41,776 nucleotides of DNA, taken from assembly GCA_001790445.1 (NCBI GenBank), contig MGCQ01000007.1, forward strand, positions 17,030 through 58,805. Reading direction: 5' to 3'. The translations under genes were made by a program, and so were the position numbers. Each line of letters begins with the position of its first letter. Within the stretch, counting starts at the first letter, position 1. The DNA comes from Candidatus Saccharibacteria bacterium RIFCSPHIGHO2_12_FULL_41_12. GTDB taxonomy: Bacteria > Patescibacteriota > Saccharimonadia > Saccharimonadales > 2-12-FULL-41-12. The notes beneath the pieces are model-generated. The model ran no database searches and was not told where the DNA came from. It saw only the letters and a list, made by a program, of their open reading frames with translations. Shown in pieces: positions 26,084 through 38,514 of this stretch.

Positions 26084-26161
26084 ACGCCAAAAAAATAGTG
26101 TGATCACCTCTCTTCGACACCAGCCTAACAGATGTATGTTATAATTTTTAAGATACACCGA

Positions 26162-26224
26162 GGTCTCATCGTCAGAGCGGTCTAGGACACCAGGTTCTCA
26201 TCCTGGAAACTTCGAAGAAGACCA
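26162..26224 (+). pseudogene. T-arm-deleted tRNA-Glu(CTC)-like sequence
   Basis: 5' acceptor strand, D arm and anticodon arm match tRNA-Glu at 26247; T arm reduced to cttcgaag; ends agacca. Confidence 0.7.
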
Positions 26225-26246: not shown

Positions 26247-26321
26247 GGTCTCATCGTCTAACGGTTAGGACACCAGGTTCTCATCCTGGAAATCCGGGTT
26301 CGATTCCCGGTGAGATCACCA
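26247..26321 (+). tRNA. tRNA-Glu(CTC)
   Basis: cloverleaf, TT-CTC-AT loop, GGTTCGATTCC, CCA. Confidence 0.93.
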
Positions 26322-26498
26322 TCACGTATCCCGCACCAATCTGTCTGCTTTCTGGTGTAACCAGAAACACCACAGATTTCTTGCCTATTTTTGGCTTACA
26401 AGCTTGCGGTGCGCACTTCACCGTACTTAAGAGTACGGCTCGTTTGCGCTCCTCGCTGTTGCACCAAAACTAGACTAAGTGCGGAACACGTTAATTAT

Positions 26499-26572
26499 GG
26501 TGCGTTGGCCGAGAAGTTAGGCACAGGTCTGCAAAACCTGCTAGACGAGAGCGTTACTCGTACGCACCTCCA
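26499..26572 (+). tRNA. tRNA-Cys(GCA), atypical T loop
   Basis: ggtgcgt/acgcacc acceptor, CT-GCA-AA loop, U discriminator plus CCA; T loop AGCGTTA. Confidence 0.88.
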
Positions 26573-34912: not shown

Positions 34913-35821
34913 ATGGCGGATTTTAAAAACAAAAAGGTTTTTTACGGCGATAAATTTATTCCATTTGGCCAAGCGAACTTGAGCATTGCCAGCTCCGCCG
35001 TTTTATATGGTTTAAGTGTTTATACAGTTTTTCCGATCAATAAAACCACTAAAGGTCTGGCGGCTTTTCGGCTTAATGAGCATTTTAGTAGGCTTGTCGA
35101 TTCAGCTCACATTATTGGTATGGATAGTTTTGCGGGTCAATGGACATATAATAAATTTTTAAATAAAGTTAAAGAACTTGCCTCGGTTAACGGAGTTGAT
35201 GAGGATGTTTTTGTCAGGGCGAGTGTTCACATTGACGCAATTCTTCCAGGTACAAAATCTAGAGGTCTCTCTCACGTGCTGAGTATGTTTATATATCCCA
35301 GTGAGCCCATAGTCCCTCAGAGTGGATGTAGACTCAAAACAAGCCTTTGGCGACGTGTTTCCGATAATTCTATCCCTGCACGCGCAAAAGTAAATGGGGC
35401 ATACGTTAATTCCGTGCTGGCCAAACAAGATGCTATCGATAGCGGCTACGATGATTGTGTTTTCTTAGACACGGCGGGACATGTTTGCGAATCCAGCGCA
35501 GCCAATATATTTTTAATTCGGGATGGTGTGTTGATTACGCCTGATACGACTAGCGATTTACTTGAGGGGATAAATCGTAAAACCGTCATTCATATAGCAA
35601 AAGATCTTGGTATCCCTGTAGAGCAACGATTGGTTGATCTAACAGAGCTGTATATCGCGGATGAGGTCTTTTTGTGTGGTACTTCAGCCTACATCGCACC
35701 AGTTATAGAGATTGACTCAAGAAAAATATCTACCAGCAACCCGCAAATAGTTCAAAAGATACAAGAGAAGTATCAATATGTTACGCATTCAGCAGATTCT
35801 AAATTCCTCCAGTTTCTGTAA
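34913..35821 (+). CDS. class IV PLP aminotransferase (IlvE/Dat family)
   Basis: AKVNGAYVNS, E.S.ANIF, LLEGI.R, ADEVFLCGT. Confidence 0.9.
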   Translation: MADFKNKKVFYGDKFIPFGQANLSIASSAVLYGLSVYTVFPINKTTKGLAAFRLNEHFSRLVDSAHIIGMDSFAGQWTYNKFLNKVKELASVNGVDEDVFVRASVHIDAILPGTKSRGLSHVLSMFIYPSEPIVPQSGCRLKTSLWRRVSDNSIPARAKVNGAYVNSVLAKQDAIDSGYDDCVFLDTAGHVCESSAANIFLIRDGVLITPDTTSDLLEGINRKTVIHIAKDLGIPVEQRLVDLTELYIADEVFLCGTSAYIAPVIEIDSRKISTSNPQIVQKIQEKYQYVTHSADSKFLQFL

Positions 35822-35873
35822 GAAGTAAATTATAGTTAAGTTAGCCCTGATCTGTTAAAATATGTGTTATGAA

Positions 35874-36048
35874 TACAACCTTTGCACTTGAGTATAGAAT
35901 TAACTTTCTCTTTGAGAAATGGAACAAGTCGTACATACGGTACGACGAAGTGAATCTCGCAGAAGAAAAGTTAATTCTATGCCAAGAGCCTTTTCGGTGC
36001 AACCCTGAGTTGTCTGGGTTGGCAGGGAGAGGCGGTGCATAGGTTGTG
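35874..36048 (+). promoter_or_regulatory. structured three-way-junction leader upstream of leuS
   Basis: closing stem 35874-88/36034-48; 16-bp stem 35892-907/35967-82; stem 35988-95/36026-33; G-U pairs favour the + strand. Confidence 0.7.
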
Positions 36049-38514
36049 AGGTATAATCCGAAAGATATTGAACCCAAATGGCAAAAACTTTGGGAAGAAA
36101 AAGGTACGTATAAAGCGGATCTAAATAGTTCCAAGCCAAAGTATATCGCCATGAGCATGTTCAACTACCCGAGTGGTGCAGGCATTCACATTGGACATGC
36201 TATGAATTACACAATTAGTGACGTAAAAGCGCGTTTTAAAAGACAAAATGGCTATGAGAGCTATCATCCTGTTGGTTGGGACGCCTTTGGATTGCCTGCA
36301 GAAAATTACGCTATCAAGGCGGGCGTTTCGCCTCAGAAGAGTATGGCAACAATTATTCCAAAATACCATAAACAATACAGGGCGATGGGCTGGAGCAATG
36401 ATTGGTCAAAGGAGATATCGACCCATACACCTGAGTATTACAAGTGGACGCAGTGGATTTTTAGCCAAATGTATAAAAATGGGCTAGCATATCAAGACGC
36501 ACGCATGCAGTGGTGGTGCGAAAAATGTCAGACAGTTTTGGCTAACGAGCAAGTTATTGACGGAAAATGCTGGCGGCATGATGGGTCAGATGATCCAACA
36601 GTAGAAAAGAAGGAAGTCAAGCAATGGTTTTTCAAAATCACAGAGTATGCGGATGAACTTTTAGATTCAATAGACGGATTAGACTGGACCGAAAGTGTCA
36701 AATTAGCTCAAAAAAACTGGATCGGTAAAAGCGTTGGAGCAGATATAGATTTCAAGATTTGGGGTGGCAACCAGTCAATTTCGGTCTTTACAACCAGAGC
36801 TGATACGTTATTTAGTGCAGCCTTCATTGTTCTTGCACCTGAACATGATCTTGTAAATCAAATCACTAGCTCAAAAAACAAACCAGAAGTCGAGGCATAT
36901 CAGAAAGCAGCTCAACTAAAGAGTGAAATTGAGAGACAAGCAGTCACCGACAAAGAAAAATCAGGCGTTTTTACTGGCGCCTACGCAGTTAACCCTGCAA
37001 ACGACGAAAAAATACCGATTTGGGTTGGTGACTTCGTTCTGGCGGGTTATGGAACTGGTGCTGTTTTTGGTGACATCCATGATGAAAGAGATTTTCAATT
37101 TATCAATAAATTTAATATTCCGGCTAAAGTTACTGTTATACCTGAAGATTTGGGTGAGGCAGAACGCGTTAAAAATAAAGAGTATTCTTACACAAAAGAA
37201 GGAGTATTAATCGACTCAGGCAAGTTTAGTGGGATGCGTTCAGAAATTGCTCGAGACGCAATTATTCAATGGCTTAGCCAGAACAAAGTTGCAACCGAAA
37301 AAGTAAACTACAAAATGCGGGATTGGAGTGTTAGTCGTCAGCGCTATTGGGGTGCACCGATACCGATAATTAACTGCGAAAAATGTGGGACTGTACTTGT
37401 TCCAGATGATCAGTTGCCAGTTGTGTTGCCTGAGCTTGAAGATTTTCAACCAAGTGGAGACGGACGTAGTGCCCTTGCTCGCGCAAAAGATTGGTTAACC
37501 GTGGATTGTCCAAAGTGTGGCAAAAAAGCCGAGCGCGAAACAGACACGTTGGATACATACATTTGTAGCAGCTGGTATATGTATCGGTATTTTGACCCGA
37601 AAAACGATGAGAAAATATTTGATTCTGACGTTATTAACCACTGGATGCCGATAGATTTTTATAACGGCGGGGACCATGCGACAGCACATCTACTATATGC
37701 AAGGTTCATAGCACGGTTTTTCACCAAAATTGGCATTGTTGACAACCCGGAACCTTTCAAACACATGCTGTTTAATGGCAAGGTAACGGCCAGTGACGGC
37801 AGTGCCTTTAGCAAGTCGAAAGGCAACGGCGTTGATCCTCTAGAGATCATTGAGCAAGGTTATGGCGCTGATGCGCTCCGGACGTATTTGATGTTTGCTG
37901 CTCCTCTTGAATTCGGCGCACGCTGGGACCCACAGGGTGTCCCTGGTGCATATCGATTTTTGTCGCGTCTTTGGACTCTTGTGCAGGAGTATCTTGGCGC
38001 TAAAAAAGCACCAATTAGTCAAGAGGTTGAGAAAGAATTACTGCGTATAACACATTCAACCATCAAAAAGATGTCTGAGGATATAGAAGCAAACCGCTAC
38101 AATACGGCAATTGCCGCCGCTATGGGCGGAGTCAACGCCCTGTATAAACTAAAAACGGATGCTCTTAGCAACGGTGCAGCTTGGAAAACTGCGCTTGAGG
38201 CTACGGTAGCTTGCGTGGCACCTTTTGCGCCGCATATTGCAGATGAATTATGGGCTCAGCTGGGCAATGAGTCGAGCGTTCAGATTGATAGTTGGCCCAA
38301 GCACAACGATAGATATATTGTGACCGATAAAATCAAAATAGTCGTACAGATTAATGGAAAACTTCGTGGAATGGTTGAAGCATCCAAAGATACGAAGCAA
38401 AAAGATTTAGAAGAGTTGACCAAGAATGAAGAGAACGTAGCAAAACATTTACAGGGCAAAACTATCAAAAAAGTGATTTATGTTCCAGGTAAACTTATCA
38501 ATTTTGTCGTATAG
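36046..38514 (+). CDS. leuS: leucine--tRNA ligase
   Basis: MFNYPSG.GIHIGH, GWDAFGLPAENYA, QKNWIGKS, SRQRYWG.PIP, AFSKSKGN. Confidence 0.97.
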   Translation: MRYNPKDIEPKWQKLWEEKGTYKADLNSSKPKYIAMSMFNYPSGAGIHIGHAMNYTISDVKARFKRQNGYESYHPVGWDAFGLPAENYAIKAGVSPQKSMATIIPKYHKQYRAMGWSNDWSKEISTHTPEYYKWTQWIFSQMYKNGLAYQDARMQWWCEKCQTVLANEQVIDGKCWRHDGSDDPTVEKKEVKQWFFKITEYADELLDSIDGLDWTESVKLAQKNWIGKSVGADIDFKIWGGNQSISVFTTRADTLFSAAFIVLAPEHDLVNQITSSKNKPEVEAYQKAAQLKSEIERQAVTDKEKSGVFTGAYAVNPANDEKIPIWVGDFVLAGYGTGAVFGDIHDERDFQFINKFNIPAKVTVIPEDLGEAERVKNKEYSYTKEGVLIDSGKFSGMRSEIARDAIIQWLSQNKVATEKVNYKMRDWSVSRQRYWGAPIPIINCEKCGTVLVPDDQLPVVLPELEDFQPSGDGRSALARAKDWLTVDCPKCGKKAERETDTLDTYICSSWYMYRYFDPKNDEKIFDSDVINHWMPIDFYNGGDHATAHLLYARFIARFFTKIGIVDNPEPFKHMLFNGKVTASDGSAFSKSKGNGVDPLEIIEQGYGADALRTYLMFAAPLEFGARWDPQGVPGAYRFLSRLWTLVQEYLGAKKAPISQEVEKELLRITHSTIKKMSEDIEANRYNTAIAAAMGGVNALYKLKTDALSNGAAWKTALEATVACVAPFAPHIADELWAQLGNESSVQIDSWPKHNDRYIVTDKIKIVVQINGKLRGMVEASKDTKQKDLEELTKNEENVAKHLQGKTIKKVIYVPGKLINFVV

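Follow-up and report, generated by a model that had tools for sequence, protein, structure and literature searches.

Correia elements (CREE) of Neisseria and the ERIC, RUP, and BOX repeats are small, non-autonomous, co-transcribed MITEs that form structures in the mRNA and can affect gene expression. Termination-reinitiation coupling is found at overlapping ATGA or GTGA gene pairs in operons. Rickettsia palindromic elements (RPE), as summarized in a review of MITEs (PMC10969869), are multicopy palindromic repeats of roughly 150 bp with no known transposase; they insert in frame into unrelated housekeeping genes and are carried as extra peptide segments. In the 41,776-nt stretch of Candidatus Saccharibacteria DNA analyzed here (the window), a folded structure spans the start of leuS. 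Based on sequence comparison, we consider it probable that this structure is one copy of a multicopy, mobile, folded repeat of the Saccharimonadales that resembles RPE and carries a translational relay, and that it is not a sensor of leucine or tRNA-Leu. The repeat family is apparently undescribed so far. A literature search (supplements outside its scope) returned no account of palindromic or miniature inverted-repeat elements in Saccharibacteria and no relevant work on leaderless genes, structured RNA, or start-codon repeats.

The element resembles RPE, as that review describes them (PMC10969869), in being a short palindromic repeat with many copies and with in-frame, stop-free insertions in unrelated genes; the likeness is one of functional class. 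Rickettsia belong to another phylum. Unlike RPE as portrayed there, the Saccharimonadales element is commonest at the start codon, where it has a built-in stop, a Shine-Dalgarno (SD)-like run, and a new start, and it folds not into a simple hairpin but into a three-way junction that is conserved along with its loops and shows an excess of G-U pairs. It shares with co-transcribed MITEs the character of a small repeat that adjoins genes and folds in the transcript (PMC10969869). In contrast to MITEs, its terminal arms (P1) pair without sequence conservation (11 of 11 P1 pairs changed on both sides in an 82-copy alignment), the bases repeated on its two flanks vary in length, and it appears to have a translated relay frame. 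As in coupled uORFs, the stop of the element lies −4 to +6 nt from a buried next start with an SD-like run upstream; unlike those, the coupling module is portable, arriving with a mobile repeat, and its upstream frame begins at the former leaderless start codon of the gene. Like a T-box (RF00230), the leuS copy is a structured leader before an aminoacyl-tRNA synthetase (aaRS) gene with the start region hidden, whereas the element has no model match, specifier, or T-box sequence, is not limited to aaRS genes, and is not conserved at leuS. The features of the locus, and of a second copy in the window, are as follows.

35853..35861, + strand: putative host promoter −10 box TGTTAAAAT, an extended −10 recognized by sequence, with the hexamer TAAAAT at 35856-61
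35869..36042, + strand: 57-codon through-frame ("uORF") from the original leuS ATG (35869-71) across the element to TAG (36040-42)
35874..36047, + strand: inserted repeat element, 174 nt if set between ATGAA and GAGG
35875..35886, + strand: 5′ strand of the closing helix P1, pairing with 36036-36047 (consensus structure mapped onto the window)
35887..35986, + strand: junction helix CTT/AAG (35887-89 with 35984-86) enclosing arm P2
35892-35934 paired with 35940-35982, + strand: long arm P2
35988..36033, + strand: arm P3 (35988-36009 with 36015-36033), its 3′ strand being the SD-like purine run
36024..36034, + strand: SD-like GGGAGAGGCGG, sequestered in P3 (family consensus AAAGGYGGTG)
36036..36047, + strand: 3′ strand of P1, containing TAG and bases 1 and 2 of the GTG
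36046..38514, + strand: leuS, 822 aa, GTG start at 36046-48, with LeuRS Pfam domains
26320..26498, − strand: second, diverged copy (R1 match, 115.4 bits)

An earlier reading from sequence alone (here, the sequence-only reading) had described a −10 box of the TGnTAAAAT type, an ATG at 35869 opening a 57-codon ORF in frame with leuS, and a TAG 3 nt before the in-frame leuS GTG, and all three were confirmed. The last T of the −10 box lies 7 nt 5′ of the ATG, so the leuS transcript should be leaderless. This box on the + strand was not flagged by a simple promoter scan because the scan demands a −35 hexamer; a −10-like hexamer occurs at the equivalent position in 7 of 11 gene-start copies. The sequence ctgttaaaatat is common to this locus and to the empty leuS site of G001, a genome of the same genus, in which it lies 6 nt 5′ of the leuS ATG. 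In relatives, leuS has the leaderless start ATG AAG AGR TAY AAT. Homology with these genes begins at 36048, and the LeuRS encoded here would begin MRYNPKD..., one residue shorter than the MKRYNPK... of relatives. The inserted DNA is about 165 to 175 nt long. At leuS its edges can be placed only to within about 5 nt, since RTGA is present at either end. The covariance model spans 35869-36051 in the leuS copy, with an R1 match of 174.3 bits. DNA contigs from three other samples have the leuS site filled and are error-free across one or both junctions, and no empty leuS allele or joint skipping the element was seen in the contigs of the four DNA runs checked.

The closed structure that the sequence-only reading had drawn from 35874 to 36048 was borne out. 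The minimum free energy (MFE) of 35822-36075 is −81.2 kcal/mol, against −56.2 ± 4.7 in dinucleotide shuffles (n = 200; z = −5.28; 0 of 200 shuffles reach the native value), and 59 of the family's 60 consensus pairs can form in the leuS copy. The predicted fold leaves the upstream ATG unpaired and has both the SD-like purines and the GTG in helices. The P2 tip is GTCGTAC-loop-GTACGAC, and conserved purine-rich internal loops interrupt this arm; the gtcgtac (35928-34), gtacgac (35940-46), and third-arm gggagagg (36024-31) motifs were found where that reading had placed them, as was a closing stem that takes up both TAG and GTG. Across the 82-copy alignment of the three-way junction, 93.2% of cells are paired (64.2% in shuffles and 31 to 46% in slid controls). 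Covariation, proposed earlier as a check, is extensive: both partners vary at 57 of 60 pairs, and helices 8 to 10 (the P3 arm) are 94 to 97% paired with covariation at every pair. The G-U-A/U-A-C of the tip helix is invariant in 82 of 82 copies, and G-U plus U-G combinations number 331 versus 68 for A-C plus C-A. Judged from this alignment, selection acts on the structure as formed by this strand. Over the whole window the element has no Rfam match at gathering score, and within 35300-36600 no family, T-box included, fits the structure at E ≤ 10. The only nearby Rfam match is a subthreshold group-II fragment at 36040-36111 (18.7 bits versus a gathering score of 32).

A genome-wide copy search, also suggested by the sequence-only reading, detected 17 full-length copies (115 to 192 bits) in the 856-kb genome and about 7 weaker or partial loci. 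Genes 3′ of copies are leuS, uppP, two glycosyltransferase (GT) genes, and genes for an M16 peptidase, an rfbB-like protein, and a membrane protein, together with ruvX, uvrB, pyrG, and dnaK; tRNAs are also among the neighbors. Of 61 genomes sampled in the order Saccharimonadales, 50 carry the element, with 1 to 33 matches per carrier, as do only 6 of 150 other genomes in a phylum-wide sample. Sites occupied here but vacant in G001 are those at the M16, ruvX, membrane-protein, GT, and leuS genes and four beside tRNAs; the tsaD site is the reverse, filled in G001 and empty here. The earlier suggestion of an inserted element is thus supported. Gene-start copies have a start codon on both sides, for example ATGAAA[...]GTGAAA versus an empty GTGAAA, and ATGG[...]ATGG versus an empty ATGG. 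The bases found on both flanks are the start codon plus 0 to 5 more (RTGAAA, ATGA, ATGG); alternatively, the element itself may end in RTGR. Presence/absence differences between species could partly reflect loss instead of gain.

Of the 14 full-length copies compared in this genome, 13 have no stop in frame 0, whereas both other frames are stop-free in 0 of 14. In column shuffles, a mean of 5.0 copies are stop-free in frame 0 and 0 of 2,000 shuffles reach 13, under a null that severs the linkage of neighboring columns and so expects too many stops. The distance from the through-frame stop to the gene start is +3 nt in four copies, +6 nt in one, and −4 nt in three (8 of 10 copies measured); for uvrB and pyrG it was read by eye as +1 and +3. 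The same layout of open frame, stop, and start is seen in 10 copies here and in 31 of 82 sampled copies of relatives; 43 of these 82 were classed as "other" or as lying upstream with no open frame. The SD-like consensus is conserved across the family. Neither this assembly nor the scanned part of G001 yielded a 16S rRNA 3′ end; that of same-family G008 is ...GGAUUACCUCCUUUCU, and with this anti-SD (CCUCC), taken from G008 and not from this genome, the SD-like run can pair with one internal mismatch. The spacing from the run to the GTG is long, at 12 to 14 nt. The sequence shares two traits with termination-reinitiation leaders, a frame ending near the main start and an SD-like run upstream.

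These observations suggest the following account. In this lineage, the element would have inserted into a leaderless leuS, either at its start codon or immediately behind it, such that the host promoter and original ATG now open a 57-codon frame across it. The element would keep that frame stop-free, close it with the TAG within P1, and also bring the SD-like purine run and a new GTG 3 nt past the TAG. A 70S ribosome would initiate on the unpaired 5′-terminal AUG, melt the helices burying the SD-like run and the GTG as it translates, terminate at the TAG, and either restart at the GTG or pass the site to a new ribosome. LeuRS would therefore still be produced, as MRYNP.... In short, translation looks to be relayed through the element. 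Such a design may permit residence at many gene starts, with stop-less versions lying in frame inside housekeeping genes. If correct, this account shows how the ultra-small, gene-dense genomes of Saccharibacteria tolerate a mobile repeat: its own relay would let the element occupy the start codons of genes that are essential and often leaderless, leuS among them, and a stop-free version would let it reside within enzymes. For annotation, dozens of 55- to 60-codon "hypothetical genes," "structured leaders," and odd GlmS, FolD, and DnaG insertions in this group would be one repeat family, which is missing from Rfam and could be modeled and masked.

Much of the same evidence bears on another explanation, which we regard as unlikely: that the copies are host-serving regulatory leaders, a common cis-acting RNA (a protein or ligand site, an RNA thermometer, or a stabilizing 5′ fold) gating genes including leuS. 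The conservation of unpaired purine-rich internal loops, the GUAC tip helix invariant in every aligned copy, the burial of the SD-like run and start codon, and the roughly 5:1 excess of G-U over A-C, which points to strand-specific selection, all speak for such a role. Orthologous copies also stay folded. The uppP copies of G000 and G001 differ by 3 compensatory changes and the glmS copies of G012 and G007 by 13, with 0 broken pairs in either comparison, and between G000 and G001 identity is 87% in the uppP copy versus 72.6% across the whole 1.5-kb locus. From these alignments, the persistence of folding at the same locus points more to a function preserved at the site than to plain selfish DNA. 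However, no pathway is common to the downstream genes, copy number varies among close relatives by as much as 0 versus 33, with 25 versus 7 matches within one genus, and copies also lie antisense to neighbors, between tRNA genes, and in frame within enzymes. At least one syntenic copy is decaying (54.7 versus 183 bits), no Rfam family was matched, and there is no known ligand or protein partner.

Copies inside genes bear on whether the insert is removed. Eight of the 82 sampled copies of relatives are intragenic (GlmS twice, DnaG, FolD, MsrA, Mpg, an ATL-like protein in antisense, and one unnamed), and all eight are in frame and stop-free, in differing element frames; a test of the flanks turned up no intragenic copy that breaks the frame. 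The roughly 57 to 60 residues are missing from the orthologues in G000 and G001. Unlike these copies, the one at leuS ends in a stop and makes no fusion. The glmS insert occupies the same codon in two, probably three, genera, with congeners that have no insert. In the glmS (G012 and G007) and pre-tRNA-Met copies, the 3′ strand of the closing helix is preexisting host sequence and the 5′ arm is the reverse complement of that sequence; protein-level comparisons hint at the same arm-to-flank match in MsrA and FolD. It is possible, if doubtful, that the repeat is not passive selfish DNA but an RNA or single-strand element whose 5′ arm matches the bases directly 3′ of the insertion point, through either pairing-guided integration or coevolution of the arm with host coding sequence as a translational gate. 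Pairing-guided integration, if true, would make it a guide-directed mobile element of a new type, for which no protein is known. The strand-specific covariation and host-matching arms make this family a tractable case for weighing RNA selection, single-strand DNA mechanics, and template-switch repair against one another.

The sequence-only reading had also raised the idea that the insert is spliced or bypassed, the RNA being excised or the ribosome hopping so as to restore ATG AAG AGG TAT (MKRYNP). Deleting 35874-36047 does yield ATGAAGAGGTATAATCCG, as claimed, and recreates the exact N terminus of 4 of the 5 nearest relatives displayed; P1 juxtaposes both junctions, and the pairing of the intragenic P1 5′ arm with host sequence 3′ of the insert is reminiscent of an internal guide. 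The ATGAA and GAGG flanks survive any insertion, however, and so the restored N terminus is not independent evidence. No intron or ribozyme family was matched at E ≤ 10, the group-II fragment being below threshold and outside the element. The intragenic copies keep frame and lack stops without exception, whereas a removed insert needs neither, and at 3 of 8 gene starts measured the through-frame overlaps the next start in a different frame (ATGA or GTGA), as coupling but not excision would lead one to expect. Removal or bypass is therefore disfavored, and we consider it very improbable.

A dedicated leuS sensor of leucine or tRNA-Leu, whether T-box-like, a tRNA mimic, or a leader-peptide attenuator, is still harder to credit. 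The sole point in its favor is the location of the element directly 5′ of leuS, where it buries the start. The absence of a T-box consensus noted earlier was upheld (RF00230 has no match at E ≤ 10), the peptide has no leucine run, and tRNA mimicry, which the sequence-only reading had offered, finds neither a tRNA model match nor a tRNA-like call. The 5′ regions of relatives' leuS show an empty site of the kind it had proposed to look for, ATG AAG AGR TAY, and the element itself is kept at leuS in 0 of 29 relatives; the only one of 30 leuS loci searched that has it is that of this genome. In this genome, copies of the element stand before no fewer than 10 unrelated genes. Of the new cis-regulator proposed earlier, a leuS- or leucine-specific device thus falls away, and translational coupling stands as the best fit to the sequence among the fates listed. 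Finally, the view that the copies are small genes, each encoding a functional protein of about 57 aa, would explain why the frame is open in most copies here, usually with an ATG at the 5′ edge, but can be set aside as scarcely plausible, given that the product matched no Pfam family, entropy at codon positions 1 to 3 (0.87, 0.77, and 0.64) has no third-position excess of variation, stem changes are compensatory in the RNA yet alter residues, intragenic copies read other frames, and many of the relatives' copies (43 of 82 by the above classes) have no open frame.

No mobilizing enzyme or parent IS was found for the mobile repeat among the Y1, TnpB, and GIY-YIG candidates examined, a further difference from MITEs. 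Y1 (HUH) transposase genes occur in 17 of 50 element-bearing versus 1 of 11 element-free genomes, with no clear link; they are missing from six genomes with 14 to 22 copies, and none adjoins a copy in G000. The idea of TnpB with an omega-RNA was rejected, TnpB being present in 1 of 61 genomes, one without the element. A GIY-YIG mobilizer was likewise rejected: element halves flank none of 21 small GIY-YIG loci, and a copy lies nearby in 1 of 21. Two small GIY-YIG ORFs of this genome lie within tRNA fragments and bear no likeness to the element. The second copy in the window fills the entire spacer from tRNA-Glu (26247-26321) to a tRNA-Cys-like gene (26499-26572), antisense to both, and the same tRNA spacer in G001 is only about 10 nt.

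The 5′ region of leuS, whose 822-residue product carries LeuRS domains, contains every feature that the sequence-only reading had listed (TAAAAT box, ATG, 57-codon ORF, TAG/GTG, heptamers, and gggagagg), each where it had been placed:

35853-35861, + strand: −10 box TGTTAAAAT
35869 (ATG) to 36040-36042 (TAG), + strand: 57-codon frame (frame 0)
36046, + strand: leuS GTG, three bases past the TAG and in the same frame
tip of the long arm, + strand: heptamers gtcgtac/gtacgac
36024-36031, + strand: gggagagg

The closed fold drawn by that reading across 35874-36048 is far beyond chance: the minimum free energy of the region was −81.2 kcal/mol, versus −56.2 ± 4.7 kcal/mol for 200 dinucleotide shuffles (z = −5.28), none of which folded as well. 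The upstream ATG is predicted to be unpaired, with the GTG paired in the closing helix (P1) and the SD-like GGGAGAGGCGG paired in a separate arm (P3). The proposed Rfam check yielded no match to the structure at E ≤ 10, with T-box, tRNA-like, intron, and ribozyme families all absent, in agreement with the earlier remark that no T-box consensus is visible. At gathering score, Rfam detected seven tRNAs and nothing else over the whole window. A weak match to the snoRNA family GlsR6 at 35600-35648, inside an aminotransferase gene (24 bits versus a gathering score of 75), is almost certainly due to chance.

The leuS element is a member of a large Saccharimonadales repeat family and not a regulator of leuS. 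BLAST of the element against its own 856-kb genome (G000) returned many copies at 72 to 85% identity, and a profile search recovered 14 full-length copies as well as diverged ones. RNAalifold on an alignment of 17 copies (A1) gave a three-way junction of 60 pairs, with compensatory changes in 49. The covariance model based on A1 (R1) completed the genome-wide search that the sequence-only reading had proposed, detecting 17 loci at 115 to 192 bits together with some seven that are weaker or partial. Genes directly 3′ of copies comprise leuS, uppP, two glycosyltransferases, an M16 peptidase, an rfbB-like gene, a membrane protein, ruvX, uvrB, pyrG, and dnaK, which share no common pathway; other copies lie directly 5′ of tRNA-Met and tRNA-Trp, antisense beside tRNA genes, or antisense between protein genes. 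The suggested new cis-regulator, as a device specific to leuS, is contradicted by this placement before unrelated genes and by the absence of the element from leuS in all 29 relatives compared. Of 61 genomes sampled within the order, 50 had between 1 and 33 R1 matches; across the phylum, R1 matched only 6 of the 150 other genomes sampled, two of which belong to the same order. Under the same filters, the same-genus genome G001 had 7 matches versus 25 in G000. The family is missing from Rfam, and our literature searches found no paper on it. The window holds one further copy:

26320-26498, − strand: second, diverged copy, filling the spacer between tRNA-Glu and a tRNA-Cys-like gene

The intact tRNA-Glu (26247-26321) is closely preceded by a partial 5′ tRNA-Glu copy (~26160-26215). 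The tRNA-Cys (26499-26572) is an ARAGORN call below the Rfam tRNA gathering score and is conserved in G001. Elsewhere in G000, ~125 nt upstream of the copy at C8:91065-91241 (C8 ~91250-91380) match four unrelated G001 places at 70 to 95% identity (C1 454763, 295723, 721205, and 701582), and this flank appears to represent another, distinct family of short repeats.

Selection on the structure was examined in 82 copies from ~25 relatives (A3), an alignment that was fitted to the model, so that its counts lean towards structure. Standard pairs filled 93.2% of cells, versus 64.2% after shuffling and 31 to 46% with slid partners; both sides change in 57 of 60 pairs, and none of 500 shuffles attained the observed value on any measure. 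The tip helix G-U-A/U-A-C is invariant (82/82), and several purine-rich internal loops are conserved across copies. Copies at the same locus stay folded. Between G000 and G001, the uppP copies (87% identity) differ by 3 compensatory and 4 one-sided changes with 0 of 61 pairs broken; between relatives G012 and G007, the glmS copies (70% identity) differ by 13 compensatory and 4 one-sided changes with 0 of 55 broken. G-U plus U-G pairs outnumber A-C plus C-A (331 versus 68), which indicates that the fold matters on the strand given here, the mRNA-sense one at gene starts. Selection may act on a specific DNA single strand instead of RNA.

To place the insertion, we compared leuS across 29 relatives, taking in ~1.5 kb of flank at each locus. 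R1 matched none of the 29, the site being filled only here, which bears out the earlier suggestion of an inserted element; homology to the relatives begins at 36048, the last GTG base. The copy is a lineage-specific insertion at the start codon. In four relatives (G005, G006, G008, and G012) leuS begins ATG AAG AGR TAY AAT (MKRYNP), precisely the N-terminus that the sequence-only reading obtained by removing the insert; G001 has ATG CAG AGA. A −10 box lies 6 to 10 nt before the leuS ATG in 4 of 5 relatives, so leuS should be leaderless in those four, and in G006 the ATG directly follows the stop codon of the upstream gene. Because the G001 leuS site and window 35851-35863 share ctgttaaaatat, the promoter and ATG 35869 are the old leuS promoter and start codon, with the element behind them. 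The proposed alignment thus revealed empty sites with an ambiguous edge: insertion between ATGAA and GAGG (174 nt, no duplication) restores MKRYNP exactly, and insertion behind ATG(A) of an element ending GTG(A) would mean that the ancestor had MRYNP or that a codon was lost. Since flanks survive any insertion, the restored N-terminus is no evidence for splicing. DNA contigs from three other samples had the site filled without differences, and none skipped the element. LeuRS N-termini of the relatives (loci L040-L068) sort by identity into two groups at odds with the family labels, one 80 to 91% identical that includes other-family genomes G030, G038, and G039, the other 50 to 67% identical that includes same-family G002, G003, G007, G013-G016, and G018, a pattern hinting that leuS was replaced or transferred within the order.

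Comparing the flanks of all copies with nearly the whole G001 genome revealed further filled and empty sites:

M16, ruvX, membrane protein, GT_3k, and leuS sites: filled in G000, empty in G001
four tRNA-side sites: filled in G000, empty in G001
dnaK 5′-UTR site: filled in G000, empty in G001
uppP site: filled in both
GT_37k site: filled in G000 (183 bits), filled but decayed in G001 (54.7 bits)
tsaD site: empty in G000, filled in G001

Gene-start copies have a start codon plus 0 to 5 further bases on each side:

ATGAAA[...]GTGAAA versus empty GTGAAA
ATGA[...]ATGA versus empty GTGA
ATGG[...]ATGG versus empty ATGG

These flanks reflect either a start-codon duplication of variable length or an element ending RTGR that landed just behind ATGR. 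The 3′ end of the pyrG copy reads ATGGCT, which is also found at the membrane-protein locus and suggests that a short 3′ flank can travel with the element.

Frame 0 is free of stops up to a conserved TAG in 13 of 14 full-length G000 copies (one stop in total), versus none of 14 for frames 1 and 2 (54 stops each). Shuffling columns, with paired columns moved together, left a mean of 5.0 copies open and never attained 13 in 2,000 trials, a null that breaks neighbor-column linkage and therefore overstates how many stops to expect. Third codon positions show no concentration of variation, and the 57-codon product has no Pfam match; what is kept is thus a stop-free frame and not a protein. Distances from stop to start were as follows:

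+3 nt: leuS, M16, membrane protein, GT_3k
+6 nt: uppP
−4 nt (ATGA or GTGA overlap): GT_37k, ruvX, rfbB
by eye: uvrB +1, pyrG +3

Of 11 gene-start copies, 7 have a −10-like hexamer 6 to 9 nt ahead of the 5′ ATG; at least three others have that ATG at or beside the end of the upstream gene. The family consensus AAAGGYGGTG could pair, with one internal mismatch, with the 16S 3′ end found in same-family G008 (...ACCUCCUUUCU). The 82 copies of relatives comprise 31 with the same layout, 12 before an ORF without an open frame, and 31 otherwise placed. The earlier guess that translational coupling might be involved was correct as to layout, with stops −4 to +6 nt from starts; for the relay itself, we infer that translation would terminate at the TAG and restart at the leuS GTG. 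The element would add a portable stop-restart module to start codons.

Deep intragenic insertions account for eight of the 82 sampled copies; the host genes encode GlmS (same codon in G012 and G007), DnaG, FolD, MsrA, an Mpg-type glycosylase, an ATL-like protein (antisense), and one unnamed product. All eight are in frame and stop-free, although the element frames used differ, and they contribute 57 to 60 residues absent from the G000 and G001 orthologues; the flank-synteny test found no frame-breaking intragenic copy. This pattern argues that the insert is translated rather than removed from mRNA, favoring the read-through option of the earlier reading over splicing or bypass. In-frame read-through inside genes is given in PMC10969869 as the hallmark of Rickettsia palindromic elements, which the present element resembles in this respect; unlike them, it has the extra stop-restart module at start codons. 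One glmS locus (G007:C11:14337-15916, L124) has two copies, the first at the start codon and the second within the gene, in frame, and another (G022:C62, L167) has a start-codon copy with part of a further copy in front of it.

Among relatives, the glmS insertion has a patchy distribution: G012 and G007 have it, their respective congeners G005 and G014 lack it, and G058 probably has it too. In G012, coding sequence that was already there supplies the 3′ strand of the closing helix (GCCTCTCCTG), the empty G005 gene having GCCTTTCCTG at this position (encoding ..LSC before GIGHTRWATHG), and the 5′ arm of the element (CAGGAGAGGC) is the reverse complement of GCCTCTCCTG. G007 versus G014 shows the same arm-to-host match, and the 5′ arm of the copy before tRNA-Met is perfectly complementary, over 12 nt, to the host flank as it stands in G001. 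Protein alignments suggest such matches at MsrA and FolD as well. In the gene-start subfamily, including leuS, the helix 3′ strand travels with the element and only the start codon is host sequence. Host-matching arms could possibly arise by arm-to-flank coevolution under selection for the helix, by template-switch "palindrome correction" during replication, or by target choice through base pairing.

No mobilizing enzyme was found among Y1/HUH, TnpB, and small GIY-YIG candidates, and the way in which the element moves is something we infer. Y1/HUH transposase genes occur in 17 of 50 element-bearing versus 1 of 11 element-free genomes and are absent from six genomes with 14 to 22 copies; TnpB occurs in 1 of 61. 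Two Y1/HUH (IS200-like or RAYT-like) homologues lie outside the window (G000:C7:118685-118978 and G000:C9:97583-97813) in open frames of 220 and 228 aa, with no element copy adjoining. A small GIY-YIG gene as part of a full-length element was rejected, as only 1 of 21 loci had a copy nearby and none was flanked by halves. Two such genes (82 and 104 aa) lie inside tRNA clusters outside the window, at G000:C1:157916-158116, between two copies of a tRNA 5′ part (aatgccggagtggcgga...), and at G000:C9:137435-137653. Many relatives have similar GIY-YIG ORFs of 80 to 134 aa.
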